Source of the DNA: a virus | Lineage: Duplodnaviria; Heunggongvirae; Uroviricota; Caudoviricetes | IMG/VR virus record: IMGVR_UViG_2541047790_000011 | DNA length: 22,955 nt | Reading direction: 5' to 3' (one strand) | Shown: in pieces, positions 10,166 to 22,955 of the stretch | Layout of the letters: each line of letters starts with the position of its first letter | Position numbering within the stretch: the first letter of the stretch is position 1 | Notes under the pieces: generated by a model | What the model was told of the DNA's origin: nothing | What the model saw: only the letters and a program-made list of their open reading frames with translations | Database searches by the model: none | Made by a program: the position numbers and the translations under genes

Positions 10166-10460
10166 AGCCAAAATTACACCTGATGAAGTCAGGGCACATC
10201 TTCGACTTGATGATGATTTATCCGGTGAAGGCGAACTTCTGAAAATGTATACCGATGCGGCGCTGGAAGCCTGCCAGAAGCATATCGGGAAACGTTTTGA
10301 AGACGGGCTGGAATTTACCCCGGCAATGCGTGTTGGTTGCCTGATGTACATCGCTTTCCTGTACGAGAACCGGGAAGCGGTTTCACCAGTGGAGCACTCG
10401 GAACTGCCTATGGCTATTTCTGCGCTCTGGTCAGTTTATCGTGACGTAGGGGTGTACTGA
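10158..10460 (+). CDS. Head-tail connector / adaptor protein (gp6-like)
   Basis: About 100 aa starting MSEAKITPDEVRAHLRLDDDLSGEGELL, which is the characteristic N-terminus of gp6-like head-tail connectors. AAGGGA upstream; overlaps portal end and HNH start. Confidence 0.65.
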   Translation: MSEAKITPDEVRAHLRLDDDLSGEGELLKMYTDAALEACQKHIGKRFEDGLEFTPAMRVGCLMYIAFLYENREAVSPVEHSELPMAISALWSVYRDVGVY

Positions 10461-10900
10461 TGCCGTGGCAACCATTAAGGCGATGCACTGAGCCTGGCTG
10501 TAATAAGCGCGTGAAGTCCGGCAAGTGTGAAGAGCACAGGCGGGCTGCATGGCGTGCAGAGGATGCCAGACGGGGACACCGCCGCGCGCGCGGGTATTCC
10601 CGACAGTGGGACAAATACCGCGCCCTGTACCTGAGCAAAAACCCGTTATGCGTGAGTTGTCTGGCTAAGGGGATTTATACGCCAGCTCTTGTGGTGGATC
10701 ACATCATTCCCATCAATGGCGGCGGTGATGTTCTCTTCTGGCCTGAGTGGAACCACCAGGCATTGTGCCAGACGTGCCACAACCGTAAGACGACACGGGA
10801 AGATCCCGCCACGAAAGCGAACCGTAAGGCGGGCATGTATCGCGATCAGGAAGAACGGGCGGCACACCGTAACGACTGGATGTATGGCGATGATGACTGA
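10460..10900 (+). CDS. HNH endonuclease (terminase-associated)
   Basis: 146-aa product with cysteine clusters and the HNH core (VVDHIIPINGGG ... NHQALCQTCHNRKT). Lies immediately upstream of terS/terL, as in cos-packaging HK97-like phages. Confidence 0.85.
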   Translation: MPWQPLRRCTEPGCNKRVKSGKCEEHRRAAWRAEDARRGHRRARGYSRQWDKYRALYLSKNPLCVSCLAKGIYTPALVVDHIIPINGGGDVLFWPEWNHQALCQTCHNRKTTREDPATKANRKAGMYRDQEERAAHRNDWMYGDDD

Positions 10901-11188
10901 ACAGGAGCAAAACAGGCTGATACGTGGGTTGATAAGGCAGCGTGACACATGGAAGACACAGGAGACAGGGCACAAAGCCAACAGGACAGGGCGCACAAAA
11001 CGCACCACAGCGAAGCGATTAACCGACCGTGACCGCGAGGTCATGGAATGTTTTCGCAATCGCTGGTGAGGCCGTCAGAGGGGGTGGGGGTGGTTTTCAG
11101 GACGAAACCGTCCCTGCCGGACACCGACCGCCTCCCCAAATTTTTATGCACGGGAATTTTTTGAAAAATAATCTGACGAAAAATAAGC

Positions 11189-11545
11189 ATGGCAAGACCA
11201 CCGAAAGCCCCCGCCTACCTGGATGATATCGCCGTGAAGCAGTGGCGGGAAAAATCGCGGCAGCTTGCGGAACGGGGAGACCTGACCCCCGCCGACTGGA
11301 GCAATCTGGAACTGTATTGCGTCAACTACTCCATTTACCGGAAAGCCGTTGCAGACCTTGCGGCGCGCGGGTTCAGCATTGTTAACAGTCAGGGCGGCGA
11401 GAGCAGAAACCCCGCATTAAGCGCAAAATCCGACGCTGAAAGAGTGATGATAAAAATGGCCTCCTTGCTCGGTTTTGACCCGATAAGCCGCCGTAAAAAT
11501 CCACCGGAAACAGAAGAAGAGGACGAGCTTGACCGCCTGGAATAA
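11189..11545 (+). CDS. Terminase small subunit (P27-like)
   Basis: 118-aa product whose pattern (W---L-ERGDLTPAD---LELYCV-YS-YRKA ... acidic C-terminus) resembles P27-family small terminases; immediately precedes the large terminase. Confidence 0.75.
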   Translation: MARPPKAPAYLDDIAVKQWREKSRQLAERGDLTPADWSNLELYCVNYSIYRKAVADLAARGFSIVNSQGGESRNPALSAKSDAERVMIKMASLLGFDPISRRKNPPETEEEDELDRLE

Positions 11546-13190
11546 GTACGCAGAAGACGTAAAAACGGGCAAAATTCCGGCCTGTAAACGGCTGAAACAG
11601 GCCGTTAAACGGTACTTTTCGGACCTTGAAAGCCCCCTTTACACGTTCGATCGTGAGGTTGTGGAGCGGTTTATTGCCTTTTCCAGGGTGTGCGCGCACG
11701 TAAAAGGGCCGATGCGTGGCAGACCCATTGAGCTGGAGCCGTGGCAGCAGTTCGCCTTTGCGTGCATCCTCGGCTTTAAGGTTAAGGCCACCGGACGGCG
11801 CAAATACACGAGCGCCTTTATCGAAGTGCCGCGCAAAAATGCGAAATCCACGACCGCCGCGATTCTGGCTAACTGGTTTCTGATTATGGAGAACGGTCAG
11901 CAGGATATCTACACCGCAGCGGTGAGCCGTGACCAGGCGCGGATCGTCTTTGATGATGCGCGTCAGATGTGCCTTTTATCCCGACCGTTACGCAGGCGGG
12001 TGAATATTCAGGCGCATAAGGTGATACACCCGAAAACCAACAGCCTGTTAAAGCCACTGGCAGCAAAAGCGGCAACCATTGAGGGGACAAACCCGAGTCT
12101 TGCCATTGTGGATGAATATCACCTGCACCCAGACAACGGGGTTTATTCCGCACTTGATATGGGGATGGGCGCACGTCCCGAAGGGCTGTTATTTGCCATT
12201 ACCACATCGGGCAGTAACGTCGTTTCAGCCTGTAAGCAGCACTATGATTATTGCTGCCAGATCCTGGACGGCGAAGAGGTCAACGATTCAATTTTTGTAC
12301 TGATTTACGAACTGGACGACGAAAACGAGGTTGATGATCCGGCGATGTGGATAAAGGCTAACCCTAACATCGATGTTTCCGTCGATCGTGAAAAACTGGC
12401 CTCAACCATCCAGAAAGCGCGGGGTATTCCGTCGCAATGGGTGGAAATGCTCACCAAGCGATTCAATATCTGGTGTCAGGGGGCTACGCCGTGGATGGGT
12501 AACGGTGCATGGGCGGAGTGTGCCGGAACGTTCGCGGAGGCGGATTTATACGGGCAGGAGTGCTACGCGGGGCTGGACTTATCATCAACCAGCGATATTT
12601 CCAGCGTGTGCTATGCCTTCCCGGTCGGTAAAAAGATTATGCTGGTTTCCCGTCACTATCTGCCGGAATTTCAGCTACAGAATCCCGCCAATAAAAACCG
12701 CGCCATCTATCGCCAGTGGGTAAAGGCGGGCTGGATACGCACAACACCGGGTGACTGCATTGATTATGACCGTATCCGTGATGACATCATGGCGGATGCA
12801 GAGAATTTCAATATCAGGCTGGTGGGCTTCGATACATGGAACGCCACGCACCTGAGGACGCAGTTACAGGGCGCAGGATTTGAGGTGGAGCCGTTCCCGC
12901 AAACCTACCTCAGATTCAGTCCGGCGGCGAAATCGTTCGAAGTTTTTGTTAACCGGAAGGTGATTGTGCATCGTGGTGATCCGGTGCTGGCCTGGTCAAT
13001 GAGTAATGTTGTGATGCAGAGTGACGCGAACGCCAATATCAAGCCGAACAAGAAAAAATCATCCAACAAGATAGACCCGAGCGTTGCGGCGCTGATGGCG
13101 TTTGGCACATTCCAGGCAGAGCACGAGGACTTTGCATTCGATATGAGCGACAGCCACAAAGAGCGGCTTGCGGCGTTTGATGGGGTATGA
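11529..13190 (+). CDS. Terminase large subunit
   Basis: 553-aa product with an N-terminus typical of Terminase_1-family large subunits (TAWNKYAEDVKTGKIPACK), an ATPase region and a C-terminal nuclease region. The only in-frame start near the N-terminus is TTG at 11529, overlapping terS; the start codon is uncertain. Confidence 0.85.
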   Translation: MTAWNKYAEDVKTGKIPACKRLKQAVKRYFSDLESPLYTFDREVVERFIAFSRVCAHVKGPMRGRPIELEPWQQFAFACILGFKVKATGRRKYTSAFIEVPRKNAKSTTAAILANWFLIMENGQQDIYTAAVSRDQARIVFDDARQMCLLSRPLRRRVNIQAHKVIHPKTNSLLKPLAAKAATIEGTNPSLAIVDEYHLHPDNGVYSALDMGMGARPEGLLFAITTSGSNVVSACKQHYDYCCQILDGEEVNDSIFVLIYELDDENEVDDPAMWIKANPNIDVSVDREKLASTIQKARGIPSQWVEMLTKRFNIWCQGATPWMGNGAWAECAGTFAEADLYGQECYAGLDLSSTSDISSVCYAFPVGKKIMLVSRHYLPEFQLQNPANKNRAIYRQWVKAGWIRTTPGDCIDYDRIRDDIMADAENFNIRLVGFDTWNATHLRTQLQGAGFEVEPFPQTYLRFSPAAKSFEVFVNRKVIVHRGDPVLAWSMSNVVMQSDANANIKPNKKKSSNKIDPSVAALMAFGTFQAEHEDFAFDMSDSHKERLAAFDGV

Positions 13191-14757: not shown

Positions 14758-17034
14758 ATGCTCAATCAAGAACTGGAACTCAGTTTAAATATGGCTTTCG
14801 CCAGAGCGCGCGAGCACCGTCATGAGTTTATGACCGTCGAGCACTTGTTACTGGCGCTGCTCAGTAACCCATCTGCCCGGGAGGCGCTGGAAGCGTGTTC
14901 TGTAGATTTGGTTGCGCTCCGTCAGGAACTGGAAGCCTTTATTGAACAAACCACACCCGTTCTGCCTGCCAGTGAAGAGGAGCGCGACACACAGCCGACG
15001 TTGAGTTTTCAGCGTGTACTGCAACGTGCGGTCTTCCATGTCCAGTCCTCCGGTCGCAATGAGGTTACCGGTGCAAACGTTCTGGTCGCTATCTTTAGCG
15101 AACAGGAGTCGCAGGCGGCATATCTGTTGCGCAAACATGAAGTCAGCCGTCTCGATGTGGTGAACTTTATCTCTCATGGCACGCGTAAAGACGAGCCGAC
15201 ACAGTCTTCTGATCCTGGCAGCCAGCCAAACAGCGAAGAACAAGCTGGTGGGGAGGAACGTATGGAGAATTTCACGACGAACCTGAATCAGCTTGCGCGA
15301 GTGGGCGGAATCGACCCACTAATTGGTCGTGAGAAGGAGCTGGAGCGTGCTATTCAGGTTCTCTGCCGTCGCCGTAAAAACAACCCGCTGCTGGTGGGGG
15401 AGTCTGGTGTCGGTAAAACCGCGATTGCGGAGGGGCTTGCATGGCGAATTGTTCAGGGCGATGTGCCGGAAGTGATGGCTGACTGTACGATTTACTCTCT
15501 CGATATCGGTTCCCTGTTAGCGGGCACAAAATATCGCGGCGACTTTGAAAAACGTTTTAAAGCGTTGCTCAAGCAGCTGGAGCAGGACACTAACAGCATC
15601 CTGTTTATTGATGAGATCCACACCATTATCGGTGCGGGTGCAGCGTCTGGTGGCCAGGTCGATGCGGCTAACCTGATTAAACCGTTGCTCTCCAGCGGTA
15701 AAATCCGCGTAATTGGTTCGACAACCTATCAGGAGTTCAGCAACATTTTCGAGAAAGACCGTGCTCTGGCGCGTCGCTTCCAGAAAATTGATATTACTGA
15801 ACCGTCAATCGAAGAAACTGTTCAAATCATCAATGGCCTGAAACCGAAGTATGAAGCGCACCACGACGTGCGTTATACCGCAAAAGCGGTGCGTGCGGCG
15901 GTAGAGCTGGCGGTGAAATACATTAACGATCGTCATCTGCCGGATAAAGCGATTGATGTTATCGACGAAGCGGGCGCTCGCGCACGTCTGATGCCGGTAA
16001 GCAAACGCAAGAAAACCGTTAATGTGGCGGATATTGAATCCGTGGTGGCCCGTATTGCACGCATTCCAGAGAAGAGTGTTTCTCAGAGTGACCGCGATAC
16101 CCTGAAAAACCTCGGCGATCGCCTGAAAATGCTGGTCTTCGGTCAGGATAAAGCCATTGAGGCGCTGACTGAAGCCATTAAGATGGCGCGTGCAGGTTTA
16201 GGTCACGAACATAAACCGGTCGGTTCGTTCCTGTTTGCCGGCCCTACTGGGGTCGGGAAAACAGAGGTGACGGTACAGCTTTCGAAAGCGTTGGGCATTG
16301 AGCTTCTGCGCTTTGATATGTCCGAGTATATGGAACGCCATACCGTCAGCCGTCTGATTGGTGCGCCTCCGGGATACGTTGGTTTTGATCAGGGCGGTTT
16401 GCTGACTGATGCGGTCATCAAGCATCCACATGCGGTGCTGCTGCTGGACGAAATCGAGAAAGCGCACCCGGACGTGTTCAATATTCTGTTGCAGGTGATG
16501 GATAACGGTACGCTGACCGATAACAACGGACGCAAAGCGGACTTCCGTAACGTGGTGCTGGTGATGACCACTAATGCCGGGGTACGGGAAACTGAGCGCA
16601 AATCCATTGGTCTTATCCACCAGGATAACAGCACCGATGCGATGGAAGAGATCAAGAAGATCTTTACACCGGAATTCCGTAACCGTCTCGACAACATTAT
16701 CTGGTTCGATCATCTGTCAACCGACGTGATCCATCAGGTGGTGGATAAATTCATCGTCGAGTTGCAGGTTCAGTTGGATCAGAAAGGTGTTTCTCTGGAA
16801 GTGAGCCAGGAAGCGCGTAACTGGCTGGCCGAGAAAGGTTACGACCGGGCAATGGGCGCACGTCCGATGGCGCGTGTCATCCAGGACAACCTGAAAAAAC
16901 CGCTCGCCAACGAACTGCTGTTTGGTTCGCTGGTGGACGGCGGTCAGGTCACCGTCGCGCTGGATAAAGAGAAAAATGAGCTGACTTACGGATTCCAGAG
17001 TGCACAAAAGCACAAGGCGGAAGCAGCGCATTAA
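14758..17034 (+). CDS. clpA: ATP-dependent Clp protease ATP-binding subunit ClpA
   Basis: 758 aa from [24 protein letters not shown], with two AAA+ modules (Walker A GESGVGKT and GPTGVGKT). GGGGGAGG precedes the ATG at 14758; the ORF track start at 14743 is 5 codons upstream. Confidence 0.95.
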
Positions 17035-17377: not shown

Positions 17378-17465
17378 TGGCGGTGAGGGGGGGATTCGAA
17401 CCCCCGATACGTTGCCGTATACACACTTTCCAGGCGTGCTCCTTCAGCCACTCGGACACCTCACC
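17378..17465 (-). tRNA. serW: tRNA-Ser (anticodon GGA)
   Basis: Reverse complement reads GGTGAGGTGTCCGAGTGGCTGAAGGAGCACGCCTGGAAAGTGTGTATACGGCAACGTATCGGGGGTTCGAATCCCCCCCTCACCGCCA: 88 nt with long variable arm, GGTTCGAATCC T-loop, anticodon GGA and encoded CCA. Confidence 0.93.
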
Positions 17466-17830
17466 AAATTGTTTTTTTGCCTGACCTCATGGGGGGCAAC
17501 GGGGCGCTACTATAGGGAGTTGGAATAAAACGGTCAAGAAGAATTTTTATGATAATTATTGTTTGCTCATACTGTAAACAAGTTGTGCAGTATATCTACA
17601 TCTGATGCGCCGCGCGATAAATAAGCCGCAATCCGTGAGATAAATGGACACAGTGCGGCTTTTCAGATACGGAAAAGGAATTACAGATTATCAGTCGTAA
17701 GCAACCCACGCTTACTGGCAAGGATGGTTTACAATGCTGAAAGCGCCTCCCGGCAATACCGCCAATCATCACTCAAACAGAAAAAATTATTGCTCATGGT
17801 TCACTCCGGTAATGAATCGTTTTACAGGCG

Positions 17831-18424
17831 TCATTCGGTCATGGAAAGATTGCTGATTTCGGTAATCCCGGCAATTTCCTCGCTGACGGATTTCAGTTCG
17901 ATTTCCAGCTTGGTGCGTTCGTTGACCAGCGCAGCTACGGTCTTACGGCGGTCTGCCAGTGACGGAAGGTTGTCATTGCCCCACGCCACGCTTTTATCCT
18001 TTTTGAGCGCTTCGGTCAGGCGGGTGGCGACCACATCCGGGAAGAAAAAGCATAACTTACGCATAACCGTCATCCCGACATCAGCCAGGGGGACATTCCC
18101 GCTCAGTCCCACCAGACGGAACAGACCAGAAATATCACCATTCTCATTTTCCAGATTACCCCAGCGTTCGGCGTTCCCTTCACTGCCGGAACCGTTGCAA
18201 AGAGCAAGCTTGAATGACTGATATTCTTCCTGCCCGAATCGCTCAATATATTCAGGAATAAAGGAACAGTAATCATTAAGCGATAATGGCATATCCTGTA
18301 ATGTGGTTATTTCACTGTTAATCTCTCCAATTCGGCGGGAGAGCTTTTCTTTCTGCTCATTCAGGGAGGCAAGATTATTTTTAACGGCGTTCAGTGCTTC
18401 GATAAGGGAAATAACAGGTTTCAT
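17831..18424 (-). CDS. Hypothetical protein (third gene of Mor-headed operon)
   Basis: 197 aa from MKPVISLIEALNAVKNNL; the start lies 1 nt after the upstream gene's stop. Coiled-coil-like N- and C-terminal segments; no recognised family. Confidence 0.5.
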   Translation of the reverse strand: MKPVISLIEALNAVKNNLASLNEQKEKLSRRIGEINSEITTLQDMPLSLNDYCSFIPEYIERFGQEEYQSFKLALCNGSGSEGNAERWGNLENENGDISGLFRLVGLSGNVPLADVGMTVMRKLCFFFPDVVATRLTEALKKDKSVAWGNDNLPSLADRRKTVAALVNERTKLEIELKSVSEEIAGITEISNLSMTE

Positions 18425-18425
18425 T

Positions 18426-19040
18426 TTAATAACTCCAGATGAAAGGCGTGGTGAGGGCGAGCGCTTCAGAATAGGAGACATTGCAGGCTGCACTTACGTC
18501 CTTTATTAAAAGGTGCTGTGCTGCCCTCTGACTGTCTGCTATGCCGTCAAACTCTGAAAAATGAACGTGTGATTCATTGTGATAAAAGCAAACCGGGTAA
18601 CAGCTTTCCATAAATTCTACCTGCGCCAGTCCCTTTACTGCTGGAGGCTGTGAGCCGAGAAAACCGATATGCTGAAGATACCAGGCACCGATTCCTGCCG
18701 GGTTGTTCGCTTCGCCGGGTCTATAAAATGCCGCAGACACTTTCCTGTAACGCCCTGCGCGTACCAGTCCCAGCAGGGTTTCATCAGGCTTAACCAGCGC
18801 GAAAAGCCTGCCGTTTTTACTTATCAGCCCAGTTGTTTCACCATAAGATGGGCTGTTGCTGGCCGGATGTCCAATACACAGCGGCGCACCATAACCCGCA
18901 CGATGATAGCCGTTATAGGCTGCCGCCATGTTGTCGATATCCTCGTCGGAAAAGGCAATTTCCTGCCCAGCCATCGTGATATGCGTTCCCGCCCGGAATA
19001 TCTCGATAGTTTTCCAGTTGCCAATATCGATATCTTTCAT
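18426..19040 (-). CDS. Hypothetical protein (second gene of Mor-headed operon)
   Basis: 204-aa ORF tightly coupled to both neighbours. The N-terminus (W-TIEIFRAGTHI--AGQEI-FS-EDIDN-AAAYN ... PLCIGHP) loosely recalls Mu-like prophage protein I / DUF-type phage proteins; this is a weak, unverified impression. Confidence 0.5.
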   Translation of the reverse strand: MKDIDIGNWKTIEIFRAGTHITMAGQEIAFSDEDIDNMAAAYNGYHRAGYGAPLCIGHPASNSPSYGETTGLISKNGRLFALVKPDETLLGLVRAGRYRKVSAAFYRPGEANNPAGIGAWYLQHIGFLGSQPPAVKGLAQVEFMESCYPVCFYHNESHVHFSEFDGIADSQRAAQHLLIKDVSAACNVSYSEALALTTPFIWSY

Positions 19041-19041
19041 T

Positions 19042-19569
19042 TTAAATTACCCCATATTTCGCATCGCGCTGTATTTTATTTTTCTTGCGTTCGGCGGCTA
19101 TAATCTGATAAATACACTGAATGGAACGCTTGTATTTTTTTGATAGTTCAAAAATAGAGATACCCTGATAAAAATCAGCCAGTATTTTTGAGTTCCTGTC
19201 GAAAGTGTTTTTTGATGCGCCCATAGGGATATATATATTCCCCCTGAAAAATGTATTCCTGAGACATTCAGTGATGGCAGGAGAAAGTTTTTCGGCTTGC
19301 GAACAGAGGTAAGGTATGGTTCCTAATGTCTGCTCAATAGATTCAGTCAGCTCCTGTAGGAAGCGAACTGCCTTAGGTGCTCTTTCTCGGTGTTCAGCCA
19401 TATACCCCTGGCAGCCACCAAGGTTATCAGAGATACCCAACACAATATGATTAGCCGCACTGCAGGACTGTTGCCGTGAATACCCTTTGTTGATCAGAAA
19501 CACTTCTATAGCATCGCCCATTGCCCCCAAAGTATCGGATGAAGCATACAATCCTTCTCTTGTAATCAT
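19042..19569 (-). CDS. Mor-family transcriptional activator-like protein
   Basis: C-terminal region RGNIYIPMGASKNTFDRNSKILADFYQGISIFELSKKYKRSIQCIYQIIAAERKK parallels the Mu Mor/C activator HTH region (G-VYIP-G ... R---I---F-G-----L---Y------IY-I---RK). GAGGTG lies 5-6 nt upstream of the ATG at 19569; the ORF track GTG at 19575 is an alternative. Confidence 0.6.
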   Translation of the reverse strand: MITREGLYASSDTLGAMGDAIEVFLINKGYSRQQSCSAANHIVLGISDNLGGCQGYMAEHRERAPKAVRFLQELTESIEQTLGTIPYLCSQAEKLSPAITECLRNTFFRGNIYIPMGASKNTFDRNSKILADFYQGISIFELSKKYKRSIQCIYQIIAAERKKNKIQRDAKYGVI

Positions 19570-19809
19570 AATCACACCTCGTCAACGATAAATATGCGCA
19601 CATAAAGCCTTTATAAAGCTTTATGAGGTGCATTACTGGTGTCATTCCATGATGCACACCACCAACAACCAAAAACGCCTTACAGAGCATTTCAATGTGT
19701 GTTATTAATGTGGATTAAGAATATGGTTTTGGGGCGAGAATGTTTTTTAATGTACTTTAGATATGACGAAGCCCCTCAAAGGAGGGGCGAGGCGGAAAAC
19801 TATTTATAA

Positions 19810-20088
19810 CTATTCCTTACTCTCCTGATCAAGACGATTACCTATCAGGTTAATCATTGCCATTGCATCAGATAGCAGGATACTGTTAACAAGTGCTAAG
19901 GGCGTCTGTGTTGATTTATCATCAACGGCAACAGAAAGTTCATCATTCAGGCGACGAACGGCCTCAAGACGGCTAAAGGCGGCTTCCCATATTTCTGTAC
20001 TCGGGGCATCAGCATTAACAAACAAAACATCGTAAGACGTTCCCTGAGACTCATGAGGACAGGCTATGAAATTAGCAGTAGCTTTCAT
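19810..20088 (-). CDS. Hypothetical small acidic protein (second gene of 2-gene operon)
   Basis: 92-aa ORF; its start overlaps the upstream gene's stop (ATGA at 20085-20088). No recognised family. Confidence 0.5.
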   Translation of the reverse strand: MKATANFIACPHESQGTSYDVLFVNADAPSTEIWEAAFSRLEAVRRLNDELSVAVDDKSTQTPLALVNSILLSDAMAMINLIGNRLDQESKE

Positions 20089-20564
20089 TTTGCAGTCCTC
20101 CGGTTAATTATAAATTTATTATAAATTTCATAACTTGCGGCATTCAGTCCTGGACTGTATTTATCTGCCAGTGAACAGGCAATGAATTCTTCAATCGATT
20201 TAGTCAGTATATCAAGCTCAGTTGTTCCGGAATAACGCAAGGCCACTCGAAATAATTCTCGGCAGTATGTTTTTTTATGGTCAATATTTTGTAACTGCTG
20301 TTGCGGTATATCACGACGTTCAAATATATTAACAAATGCATTAAGCGGGAAGCTATGATTTGCCTGCGGATATTGCTCATAGGAAAACACCACAGTATTA
20401 CCGTTGCATTCTTTAACAATTGCATTCATACCGCTGTTAATTTCAATATACCACTCTCCTATACATGGAGGATTGATAGCTTCGCTCTGTGCCTTGATTA
20501 AAGGTAAGCGGATAGTATCCACTTGGTTTGTTGCAACTGAATCGTTAGACTTGTCGTTAGCCAT
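20085..20564 (-). CDS. Hypothetical protein (first gene of 2-gene operon)
   Basis: 159 aa from MANDKSNDSV with AGGA 8 nt upstream. AT-rich codon usage by eye. No recognised family. Confidence 0.55.
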   Translation of the reverse strand: MANDKSNDSVATNQVDTIRLPLIKAQSEAINPPCIGEWYIEINSGMNAIVKECNGNTVVFSYEQYPQANHSFPLNAFVNIFERRDIPQQQLQNIDHKKTYCRELFRVALRYSGTTELDILTKSIEEFIACSLADKYSPGLNAASYEIYNKFIINRRTAK

Positions 20565-20597
20565 GACTGTTATCCTACACATAACGGTTTTTGGTTA

Positions 20598-20701
20598 GGC
20601 CATAGCAAGTGCTCGCAACATTTGTTATGGCCGTTTCTTTGGCCCTTTCCCTGTGATAAGGTATAGACCTAACAAGTAAACACTAAGCCATAGGTCTATA
20701 C
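20598..20701. promoter_or_regulatory. Divergent promoter region with two inverted repeats (candidate operators)
   Basis: IR1: ggccatagcaa (20598-20608) / ttgttatggcc (20622-20632), one mismatch. IR2: gtatagacct (20661-20670) / aggtctatac (20692-20701), perfect, 21-bp spacer. Located between the minus-strand 2-gene operon and the plus-strand RHH gene. Confidence 0.35.
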
Positions 20702-20752
20702 ATGTCAACTATCTTGAGAGATAAAAGCCAAAAAGGGGCAGGGAAAGCCCCC

Positions 20753-20893
20753 ATGTTTAACGTTAGAATATCGCCAGATTTGAAAGAACAGTTTGAAATA
20801 CAAGCAAAAAAAGAAGGTGTTAGCTTGGGAAACTGGCTCAAGGAACTTGGCAGGGCGGAACTAAAACGTAAGGGGATCGAGCCGAAAGGGTGA
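20753..20893 (+). CDS. Ribbon-helix-helix (CopG/Arc/MetJ-like) DNA-binding protein
   Basis: 46 aa from MFNVRISPDLKEQFEIQAKKEGVSLGNWLKELGRAELKR: a beta-strand followed by two helices is the RHH signature. AGGGA lies about 9 nt upstream of this ATG. The ORF-track start at 20702 has no Shine-Dalgarno and abuts IR2. Confidence 0.55.
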   Translation: MFNVRISPDLKEQFEIQAKKEGVSLGNWLKELGRAELKRKGIEPKG

Positions 20894-20919
20894 TGTTTTA
20901 GTCTCCCTGTGTTTGATTA

Positions 20920-21753
20920 AAAGCGAAATCGCTTTCACATTTAAAGTTCAAGATAGCCAATGCCATCACCAAAGCGGACAGCGCTGTCCGCTTTTCATCA
21001 GTAAAAACCACATATTTACGCCAAAACGCTCAACGTTGAGCGCTACGTACCCCGGCAAAAGCGCAAGCGTCTGCGCTTTTGGTAACAAGCAATCAGCATT
21101 TAAATGCGGACAACGTTGACCGTTTTGAGGAATCAATGTCGGCTGAGCAAAAACGACAACGTTGTCGTTTTTAAAACGGCAAGCGCTTACCGTTTCAGAT
21201 TATCGAGGCGGTAAGAGTTTACCGTTTGGTGTCAATTATGTTCAATAAGCGAAAACGTTTTCGCATTTTCTCACCTAACGCGGCAAACCTTCTTTGTCCT
21301 AGATGGAAAAACGACAGCGCTGTCGTTTCTAATCCGGGGTTCCAAACCGCTCAGCGCTGAGCGGTTCTGTGGCTTTCTTACAATCCAAATCCGCCAACGT
21401 TGGCAGATTTGCAAATATCACATATGATTGATGGTCCCGAATCACAAATGTCCCAGCGCGGGGATATTTCAAGTAGTTCAATCATTTCATGCGCTGGCAG
21501 TCATCTCCAAAACTGCGAACGCCTGCCCTTTCAGTACAGTTTGGTAATATATATTGGTAAGCTTTACTTGTAGAAATATAAAACTCCAAAAGCGCCAGCG
21601 CTGGCGCTTTGTAAGGCCAGCAATATCATTCCCAGCGCTGGAATACTAAAAGGCGGATTCCTGCATCTTAATTTGAGATGGAATCTCATGGCAATCCAGT
21701 GTTAACGTAGGGTTTTAGCCAGTACTCACGACTTGAATATGCCAGCGCTGGCA
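20920..21753. repeat. Array of at least 15 sequence-diverse palindromes with shared architecture (A-run, CG-rich arms around a CAGCGCTG or CAACGTTG centre, T-run)
   Basis: Perfect palindromes read directly: 20971-20994 (24 nt), 21027-21042 (16), 21149-21172 (24), 21249-21264 (16), 21309-21328 (20), 21345-21366 (22), 21393-21404 (12), 21589-21610 (22), 21632-21641 (10), 21740-21753 (14). Near-perfect: 20920-20935, 21057-21080, 21107-21122, 21174-21195, 21209-21224. No convincing ORF covers the array. Confidence 0.6.
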
Positions 21754-21990
21754 CATTTGAAGTCTGGTAACATCAATAATCTAATGACACCTGATGTAAT
21801 TTTGAACCCTGAACTGGAATCAACCCCAAATTTAATGGCAACAGCTATCAGCCAGATTACTGATGAACGTGACCTGCTGAACCAATTACTTGACCAAGCA
21901 CAGATGGCCGATGCATTCGAGCAATTTTCCCGAACGGTTCGGACTTCTAAACTGGCTTTTGTGAAGGAAAACAAGGGCTTTGTTGAATAA
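21739..21990 (+). CDS. Hypothetical ORF whose 3' end runs into the IS903 terminal inverted repeat (possibly insertion-truncated)
   Basis: About 83 aa from ATG 21739 (MPALAHLKSG...); the last codons (GGC TTT GTT GAA TAA) are IS903 end sequence. The start codon sits inside the 14-bp palindrome 21740-21753. Coding status uncertain. Confidence 0.3.
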   Translation: MPALAHLKSGNINNLMTPDVILNPELESTPNLMATAISQITDERDLLNQLLDQAQMADAFEQFSRTVRTSKLAFVKENKGFVE

Positions 21991-22955
21991 ATCAGATTTC
22001 GGGTAAGTCTCCCCCGTAGCGGGTTGTGTTTTCAGGCAATACGCACGCTTTCAGGCATACCTGCTTTCGTCATTTTGTTCAGCGCTCGTACCAGGGCCAT
22101 AGCCTCTGCAACCTGACCATCGTAGTCACGCAGTGTCAGTGAACCTCCGAACAGCTGTTTTACCCGGTACATCGCCGTTTCCGCTATCGAGCGACGGTTA
22201 TAATCTGTTGTCCATTTCCACCGCGCATTACTCCCGGTCAGCCGCTGATTCGCAACAGCACGGTTACGGTCTGCATATTCACCGGGCCAGTAACCCGCGC
22301 CTTTTCGGGGCGGGATAAGCGCGCTGATTTTCTTACGCCGCAGTTCATCGTGACAGAGCCGGGTGTCGTAAGCGCCGTCTGCCGATGCTGCCCTGATTTT
22401 TCTGTGAGTCTGCCGGATAAGACCCGGGAAGGCTTCTGAGTCCGTCACATTGTTCAGCGACAGGTCTGCACAGATGATTTCATGTGTTTTGCTGTCAACT
22501 GCCAGATGCAACTTTCGCCATATACGACGGCGTTCTTTGCCGTGTTTTTTGACTTTCCATTCGCCTTCACCAAAGACCTTCAGCCCGGTGGAATCAATCA
22601 CCAGATGCGCGATTTCACCTCGGGTGAACGTTTTGAAACTGACATTAACCGACTTTGCGCGCTTGCTGACACTGGTGTAATCCGGGCAGCGCAACGGAAC
22701 ATTCATCAGTGTAAAAATGGAATCAATAAAACCCTGTGCAGCCCGCAGGGTCAACCTGAACACGCGTTTAATGACCAGAACGGTGGTGATGGCGAGATCA
22801 GAATAGCGCTGAGGTCTTCCCCGTGATGAAGGCGTTGCCGACTCATACCAGGCCTGAATAGCTTCATCATCCAGCCAGAAAGTTATGGAGCCACGGTTGA
22901 TGAGGGCTTTATTGTAGGTGGGCCAGTTGGTGATTTTGAACTTTTGCTTTGCCAC
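21976..22955 (-). mobile_element. IS903 (IS5 family), partial - runs off the right window edge
   Basis: Terminal inverted repeat GGCTTTGTTGAATAAATC begins at about 21976; the internal transposase is recognisable as IS903 from memory. The ~1.06-kb element would end beyond base 22955. Confidence 0.88.
22032..22955 (-). CDS. IS903 transposase
   Basis: 307-codon ORF starting MAKQKFKITNWPTYNKALINRGSITFWLDDEAIQAWYESATPSSRGRPQRYSDLAITTVLVIKRVFRLTLRAAQGF, near-identical to the IS903 transposase as recalled. Start codon (GTG in this frame) is at the very last bases of the window. Confidence 0.9.
   Translation of the reverse strand: MAKQKFKITNWPTYNKALINRGSITFWLDDEAIQAWYESATPSSRGRPQRYSDLAITTVLVIKRVFRLTLRAAQGFIDSIFTLMNVPLRCPDYTSVSKRAKSVNVSFKTFTRGEIAHLVIDSTGLKVFGEGEWKVKKHGKERRRIWRKLHLAVDSKTHEIICADLSLNNVTDSEAFPGLIRQTHRKIRAASADGAYDTRLCHDELRRKKISALIPPRKGAGYWPGEYADRNRAVANQRLTGSNARWKWTTDYNRRSIAETAMYRVKQLFGGSLTLRDYDGQVAEAMALVRALNKMTKAGMPESVRIA

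Follow-up and report, generated by a model that had tools for sequence, protein, structure and literature searches.

Taken together, our analyses indicate that the noncoding gap immediately upstream of terS, at positions 11070-11188 of the window (the whole stretch of DNA analyzed, 22,955 nucleotides), is very probably the cos site of a capsid-forming PICI (cf-PICI) and is built like the HNH-dependent cos sites of the HK97 type. The sequence-only reading had nominated this gap as a candidate packaging site, and the proposal is supported by the HK97-type packaging module around it, by a layout and spacing shared with HK97 and SfI/SfV, and by the ends of related assemblies that lie in the gap. 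The location itself was expected, and a specialist would look for cos there; the cut can now be predicted at base level, and the site reads as an HK97/SfV-type cos in a satellite. In the accessible literature, we met with no cf-PICI whose cos site had been mapped.

The island and its packaging module

The window matches E. coli SaT040 and other human isolates at 100% identity. According to the RefSeq annotation of the identical SaT040 locus, it carries an island of ~14 kb inserted between cspD/yljB and clpS, which encodes an integrase, a regulator, a primase, a major capsid protein, an HK97-family protease, a portal, a head-tail connector, an HNH endonuclease, a P27-family TerS and TerL; no tail genes are annotated in the island. 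This gene set matches that described for EcCIEDL933, and the element is a cf-PICI, a class with a size of about 15 kb. Over the packaging region, the window shares 72-75% nucleotide identity with the EDL933-derived contig and with KpCIDSM30104 (vB_KppS-Ant), and the 1.2-kb HNH-terS stretch was found in 515 of 5,426 complete E. coli genomes. Members of this class have been reported to fill their own capsids, to borrow phage tails and to spread across species. Their DNA re-anneals via cohesive ends, and packaging requires the island's own HNH, TerS and TerL. Past clpA (window ~17378-22955) lies a tRNA-Ser gene, followed by an apparent second mobile element with a Mor-family activator, a HicB antitoxin, hypothetical genes and an IS5 transposase (RefSeq annotation).

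A full HK97-type packaging module surrounds the gap in the order HNH (PF01844), TerS (PF05119) and TerL (PF03354 and PF20441), with a 61-aa ORF between HNH and the gap. The genes and the sub-sites discussed below are as follows.

10460-10900, + strand: HNH endonuclease gene (PF01844, E 3e-9; phrog_144, E 5e-45; annotated in RefSeq), the accessory nuclease of HK97-type cos packaging
10884-11069, + strand: small basic ORF of 61 aa (RefSeq-annotated; phrog_3173, E 5e-29)
11070-11188, no strand: whole noncoding gap of 119 bases, very probably the cos region, holding the conservation peak of the 1-kb alignment
11080-11093, + strand: G-box GGGGGTGGGGGTGG, ending 31 bp upstream of the predicted overhang; G12-G15 invariant in 26 taxa; unique in the window
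11094-11103, + strand: conserved block TTTTCAGGAC adjoining the G-box; T20, T21 and A27 invariant (26 taxa)
11104-11118, no strand: spacer, variable in sequence and fixed in length; majority fraction 0.60, against 0.86-0.95 for the core
11119-11124, + strand: left cut flank GGACAC; 11124 is the predicted final base pair of the right genome end, and an IMG/VR contig end maps here
11125-11134, + strand: predicted 10-nt 3' cohesive end 5'-CGACCGCCTC-3', aligned to TGCCCGCCCC of SfI and the terminal CGCCGCCAAA of HK97
11135-11147, + strand: right cut flank CCCAAATTTTTAT, the most conserved block (majority fraction 0.95), with the first T-tract at 11141-11145
11148-11163, + strand: predicted TerS-binding site GCACGGGAATTTTTTG, +14 to +29 from the cut, with a T-tract at 11157-11162
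11164-11171, + strand: conserved A-tract AAAAATAA, which closes the conserved core; the sequence from there to the ATG is variable
11189-11545, + strand: terS, P27/Terminase_4 family, 118 aa (PF05119, E 1e-23)
11529-13190, + strand: terL, large terminase with ATPase and nuclease (PF03354 and PF20441; phrog_9)

The limits of the gap had been read correctly, but the remainder of the space between HNH and terS is not noncoding: the 61-aa ORF (10884-11069) occupies it, so that HNH does not directly abut the cos site as had been supposed. This ORF overlaps the end of the HNH gene, and its stop codon lies 11 nt upstream of the G-box. It is also present in vB_KppS-Ant and EDL933; its middle (10954-10998) is poorly conserved, and a 19-nt direct repeat is found there (10958-10976 and 10981-10999). 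The EcCIEDL933 preprint described a mutation of "hypothetical gene 1792" that lowers transfer without abolishing it, and this gene might be the counterpart of the 61-aa ORF.

Composition and conservation of the gap

The composition of the gap is two-part, with a GC fraction of 0.71 up to 11137 and of 0.25 beyond. The G-run and the C-rich segment of the sequence-only reading are both present, but with shifted limits: the G-run gagggggtgggggtgg spans 11078-11093 rather than 11078-11094, and ccgcctcccc spans 11128-11137 rather than 11129-11137. Across the 22,955 bases and both strands, no 14-nt stretch other than that in the G-run has 12 or more G or C, and the only match to the G-run with fewer than three mismatches in the window is the run itself; it is not a chance feature.

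The two runs could in principle pair, in a transcript or in single-stranded DNA, into a hairpin that acts as a terminator or attenuator or controls terS translation, with cos located elsewhere. The minimum-energy RNA fold does pair 11079-11086 with ~11129-11136, and a weak terminator-like match lies at 11072-11087. However, the gap folded no better than its shuffles (z -1.41 as DNA, -1.66 as RNA), and RNAalifold on 26 taxa retained six G:C pairs with 0 compensatory changes and a covariation term of 0.02; the "complement-like" character ascribed to the C-rich segment is thus a likeness of composition. Terminator-like sites (4, against a shuffle expectation of 2.2 +/- 1.7) showed no excess. An intrinsic terminator or structured RNA would be marked by a covarying stem with a U-run or by an Rfam match, and the gap has neither, a search of it against Rfam having returned no family. 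Moreover, a terminator here would sever terS and terL from their operon, and the termini of related assemblies and records fall in the gap. We therefore give the hairpin only a slim chance and regard the gap as cos.

To follow conservation, terS relatives at 39 loci were collected from species-representative genomes, covering ~30 genera of Enterobacterales, Aeromonas and Pasteurellaceae, and supplemented with IMG/VR and metagenomes. Majority fractions were computed in 15-nt blocks on a 28-taxon alignment of ~1 kb, and invariance and covariation on 26 taxa. The noncoding blocks of 11119-11163 reached 0.86, 0.95 and 0.88, against 0.47-0.89 for the HNH and terS coding blocks and 0.11-0.64 for the 61-aa ORF (28 taxa). 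From the G-box to GAAAATAA, the spacing is fixed and free of indels in all taxa except for one 1-nt insertion, and the same layout recurs in 193 loci, which represent 104 sequence variants.

Expression signals might also be conserved, and the A/T-rich half of the gap (11138-11188) could be merely the promoter and ribosome-binding region of terS-terL. It has a GC fraction of 0.25 and lies immediately 5' of terS, as such a region would. However, no sigma-70-like site was found on the + strand of the gap, and promoter-like sites in the gap showed no excess over the shuffle expectation. The variable part is the stretch closest to the terS ATG, and the end of a related contig coincides with the left edge of the A/T-rich half. 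In some Pasteurellaceae, furthermore, the conserved core lies ~130-150 nt away from terS with unrelated sequence between them; therefore, the core is not simply the terS translation-start region. We consider an expression signal very unlikely to account for the conservation and retain the reading of this half as part of cos.

The Pasteurellaceae insert between the core and terS (~130-150 nt) contains several short palindromes with AT-rich centers, such as GATCCAATTTTGGATC and CCTCAAATTTGAGG, and Pasteurella Pmp8 has a similar palindrome just 5' of the G-box. Nine terS relatives are spread over several contigs of a single assembly, LVZB01 ("Pasteurellaceae bacterium Macca"), which points to numerous cf-PICI-like copies or to an artefact of assembly.

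Within E. coli, the variant of the TerS-site block tracks the terS allele class, a match that fits co-evolution of the protein with its site. When 11076-11171 was compared with related loci, the window site appeared as a mosaic: the left half, to ~11132, is identical to a lineage with a ~89% identical terS, and the right half is that of a lineage with a 100% identical terS; the crossover falls within the decamer predicted as the cohesive end.

Comparison with known cos sites and termini of relatives

A common layout was found in the gap and in the HNH-dependent phages HK97, SfV/SfI, D3, phi644-2, Gordonia Mcklovin and Clostridium PhiS63: a G-box, a spacer of 30-32 bp, a 9-11-nt segment and an A/T-tract. 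The 9-11-nt cohesive segment is usually C-rich, and the A/T-tract stands at the position of the HK97 TerS-binding site. For SfI, the segment is a measured 10-nt gap and for HK97 a reported 10-nt 3' overhang; for the other phages, it is given by the record ends, taken as physical ends.

In HK97, the record terminates on the right with GGGCAGGGGGGGGG, 32 nt and CGCCGCCAAA, and begins on the left with GTTTGAATTTAACGCTAACCCGATTTTTTT ahead of the terS ATG. Its ends have been reported as 10-nt 3' overhangs whose cleavage is promoted by the HNH protein gp74. Its TerS binds CTAACCCGATTTTTT at +15 to +29, with essential contacts to T16 and a C:G pair at +21 and a need for the A-tract, and inversion of the C:G pair at +21 abolishes binding. 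The window resembles HK97 in the position of cos between HNH and terS, in a G-box 32 bp (in HK97) before a C-rich 10-nt segment that follows GAC, a 3' overhang in HK97 and a predicted one in the window, and in a GA plus T-tract ~22-30 bp past the cut, where HK97 TerS binds. It differs in the overhang (CGCCGCCAAA in HK97, CGACCGCCTC in the window) and in the TerS-site triplet, which is CCC in HK97 and GG(T/G) in cf-PICIs; the cf-PICIs additionally have an extra T-tract at +7 to +11. The TerS proteins are also distant: HK97 gp1 has 161 aa and no PF05119 score, whereas the window TerS has 118 aa and is 25% identical to it.

SfV and SfI are closer in this respect, their TerS belonging to the same Pfam family (32% identity between the SfV and window proteins). 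Run-off sequencing of SfI virion DNA gave a 10-nt gap, 5'-TGCCCGCCCC-3', and SfV has the same bases except for one. In SfV, GGGGAGGGGCGGG precedes the decamer by 31 nt and ATCGTTTTTTT comes after it; the G-box 31 bp before the overhang and the T-tract directly after it are shared with the window. The SfI overhang is identical to the cf-PICI consensus CGCCCGCCCC at 9 of 10 positions and to the window at 7 of 10. Unlike the island, SfV and SfI are complete myoviruses of ~37-39 kb, and the SfV downstream sequence CCCGCGAAAAA is an A-tract in the opposite orientation.

In phi644-2 (Burkholderia), D3 (Pseudomonas), Mcklovin and PhiS63, HNH is the last gene and terS the first, and a G-box precedes the terminal 10-11 nt by 30-32 nt. 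The phi644-2 record starts with GTCAAATTTTCACGCC (containing GTCAAATTTTCAC) and Mcklovin has TTTTTAC at +7, both of which are cf-PICI-like. The sequences of these four phages are otherwise unrelated to the window, and the cohesive end of PhiS63 is not C-rich. A (G)GAC or CAC precedes the overhang in HK97, SfV, D3, phi644-2 and Mcklovin, and GGACAC stands immediately before the decamer in D3, Mcklovin and the window.

Anchoring the alignment on (G/C)AC directly before the overhang lines up the G-box, overhang and downstream tracts of HK97, SfV and the cf-PICIs. The anchored sequences read gac/CGCCGCCAAA/gtttg in HK97, gac/TGCCCGCCCC/atcgttttttt in SfV, cac/CGCCCGCCCC/ctcaaattttt in the cf-PICI consensus and cac/CGACCGCCTC/cccaaattttt in the window, with G-box-overhang distances of 32, 31 and 31 nt in HK97, SfV and the window. 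The GA plus T-tract falls at +22 to +30 in HK97 and at +21 to +29 in cf-PICIs, whose T-tract covers +23 to +28/29; in the window, the T-run occupies +23 to +28 after GGGAA, compared with +24 to +30 after CCCGA in HK97, a match at the sequence level that makes this a predicted site. From the alignment with the SfI cohesive end, the overhang is predicted at 11125-11134 and the TerS site at ~11148-11163. The first base pair of the left genome end would then be 11135, and the opposite strand of that end is predicted to carry 5'-GAGGCGGTCG-3'. Two other placements were discarded. A cut after 11140, from a first HK97 alignment on the shared AAA, was dropped, as the SfI run-off data and the G-box spacing anchor GAC next to the overhang. 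The start of the SfV record is not the cut either, for the record begins 7 nt before the experimentally defined overhang.

Related elements were then considered for their termini, which come from relatives with about 75-78% nucleotide identity to the window. IMG/VR contig IMGVR_UViG_3300022664_000095 is a linear cf-PICI of 15,518 nt with a cos-permuted gene order and 74-78% nucleotide identity to the packaging and head genes of the window. It starts with CTCAAATTTTTACGCACGGTGATTTTTTTG, of which the beginning, CTCAAATTTTT, is homologous to the flank at 11135, and it ends with CAAGGCAC (..GGCAC). In the BLAST alignment, contig position 3 corresponds to 11137 and position 15503 to 11109; the contig ends therefore correspond to 11135 and 11124 of the window. 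These termini are assembly ends from a sample and library of unstated type, and the locus ranges confirm that they are the true ends of the contig. The overhang at 11125-11134 had been predicted before this contig was discovered, and the contig lacks exactly those 10 nt; linearization at the predicted position by chance would occur in ~1 of 15,000 cases. The 10 nt are absent from both ends and are not duplicated, as expected if 3' overhangs were removed in end-polishing, whereas a 5' overhang should have had the opposite effect. On this basis, and by analogy with HK97 and SfI, the overhang would have 3' polarity, and we infer that the island in the window is cut at the same bases.

In the cos site of lambda (cosQ-cosN-cosB), a nicking site is likewise flanked by a site for the small terminase, on the side packaged first, and by an upstream element, on the side packaged last. 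Lambda overhangs are 5' and 12 nt long, and the phage has gpNu1 R-sites and an IHF site but no HNH partner. The cf-PICI site departs from this type, the 10 nt being missing from both ends of the related contig instead of duplicated and the terminase belonging to a different family.

Two further records break in the gap. vB_KppS-Ant (LR881103), sequenced from a phage preparation (Nextera XT library, SPAdes assembly), matches part of the K. pneumoniae DSM 30104 genome at >99% identity. Its publication describes a filamentous ssDNA prophage of a novel genus, but its capsid, portal, HNH, terS and terL identify it as the cf-PICI of that strain. The linear record runs from terS through terL, int, capsid and HNH to the small ORF; it starts with ACGAAAAGG ahead of the ATG and ends with GGTTTTCAGGAC, exactly after the block homologous to 11094-11103. 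The chromosomal copy in ATCC 13883 has 69 extra bases between the record ends, namely 21 nt, the decamer CACCCGCCCC and 38 nt, a shortfall of the kind expected when coverage is lost at the termini of linear DNA. In addition, a 765-aa "tail length tape measure protein" is annotated immediately behind terL in vB_KppS-Ant; the window contains no equivalent of it. P12620-1 (PQ569648.1), like vB_KppS-Ant a lysate-derived record, carries at its end a cos-permuted cf-PICI copy, which opens with codon 1-2 of terS and breaks off within the small ORF, with ~60 nt missing on each side of the same decamer. This "Klebsiella phage P12620-1, complete genome" entry (106.5 kb; 88000-106503 examined) joins ~90.6 kb of unrelated DNA to the cf-PICI at terS codon 1-2 and looks chimeric.

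Unique ends at the site were thus seen in relatives only, as contig termini at 11124/11135 and as breaks in the gap in vB_KppS-Ant and P12620-1. A search of the phage collection for further particle-derived records returned these two and short fragments. In a first survey of terS-bearing IMG/VR contigs, mostly prophage predictions, none ended near the gap, and among 80 terS-bearing metagenome contigs, 2 ended within 125 nt upstream of terS, neither of them within the core, so that these contig ends carry no information on the site.

These data bear on the exact position of the cut. With cos in the gap, the cut might still be shifted by a few bases from 11125-11134 or leave an overhang of another length, for example after CCAAA at 11140. 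The window core differs from the consensus at several positions, including 2 of 10 in the overhang (CGACCGCCTC against CGCCCGCCCC) and some in the TerS-site block, and the vB_KppS-Ant gap has its midpoint 3-4 nt rightward of the predicted overhang. However, 11124/11135 is indicated alike by the G-box-overhang spacing, by the GGACAC flank and by the termini of the contig, and we regard such a shift as unlikely. Headful (pac) packaging that starts near the gap without a defined cohesive end is a generic alternative for any terminase-encoding element, and nothing specific spoke in its favor. Against it, an HNH partner and an HK97-type TerL accompany cos packaging, cf-PICI DNA re-anneals via cohesive ends, and the related IMG/VR contig is of unit length with unique ends and no terminal redundancy. 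We consider headful packaging exceedingly improbable and cos cleavage at 11124/11135 the preferred reading.

Proposed packaging model and possible basis of helper-satellite specificity

The G-box deserves separate consideration. It lies at -43 to -32 from the terminal 10-11 nt in HK97, SfV, D3, phi644-2, Mcklovin, PhiS63 and both cf-PICIs examined, and in each of these sequences it ranks in the top 0.05-0.5% of G-rich 12-mers. The phages span Proteobacteria, Actinobacteria and Firmicutes, and the cf-PICIs have it too; we found no description of it in the accessible literature. A distance of 30-32 bp amounts to three helical turns, so the G-box, which lies on the last-packaged end, would share one face of the helix with the cut. 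It may serve as a docking or termination signal for the TerL-HNH nuclease; in position it is comparable to lambda cosQ, of which it may be a functional counterpart. In Streptococcus thermophilus phage Abc2 (FJ236310), GGGGTGG stands 31 nt before a C11 run, CCCCCGCCCCC, and the record is linearized 19 nt further on. The case is uncertain; should the layout rule apply, Abc2 would have its true cohesive end in the C-run and not at the record end.

Other satellites, namely P4, SaPIbov5 and the Rpp-type E. coli PICIs, likewise depend on a cos site for their spread. However, they copy the cos site of the helper or retarget the helper TerS, whereas the island in the window has its own cos and its own TerS, TerL and HNH. 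EcCIEDL933 is mobilized by HK106 and HK446, and its transfer needs its own packaging-module genes; mutations in the phage homologues are without effect, and vice versa. The terS genes of HK106 and HK446 are 100% identical to that of HK97, and the cos region of HK106 is that of HK97 unchanged. Helper and cf-PICI sites therefore share a layout but differ in the overhang and in the TerS site, with CCCGA-T7 in the helper and GG(T/G)(G/A)A-T6-7 in cf-PICIs. The satellite-specific cos that had been proposed to explain selective packaging by the island's own terminase fits this picture, with a helper, HK106, that combines the HK97 cos and an HK97-identical terS, and with the triplet CCC opposed to GG(T/G). 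Because inversion at +21 abolishes HK97 TerS binding, it is a reasonable inference, by analogy, that the triplet contributes to the mutual exclusivity of helper and satellite. We tentatively give somewhat less than an even chance to two further points: the G-box would be a conserved third sub-site of HNH-dependent cos, and, separately, the inverted C:G TerS-site triplet may keep helper and satellite packaging distinct.

The proposed packaging model assigns proteins to sub-sites by analogy with HK97, whose TerS is 25% identical to that of the island. After induction and replication, the island TerS would bind the A/T-tract site at ~11148-11163, and TerL, aided by HNH, would place staggered nicks flanking 11125-11134. 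The mature DNA would start at 11135 (CCCAAATTTTT, followed by terS) and end at 11124 (the G-box, then GGACAC), with 10-nt 3' cohesive ends, CGACCGCCTC. Packaging would begin with terS and terL, pass the att junction and int, and take in the head genes before reaching the next cos. On the last-packaged end, at a distance of three helical turns upstream from the cut, the G-box may position the nuclease complex or have a role in termination.

A cut, a cohesive end and a TerS site predicted at base level would define a minimal packaging signal for cos-plasmid transduction or for engineered delivery particles. The signature of a G-box, ~31 bp, a C-rich 10-mer and T-tracts may be used to locate cos in HNH-dependent phages and satellites. 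Moreover, the model offers a concrete and testable explanation for the failure of helper and satellite to package each other's DNA.
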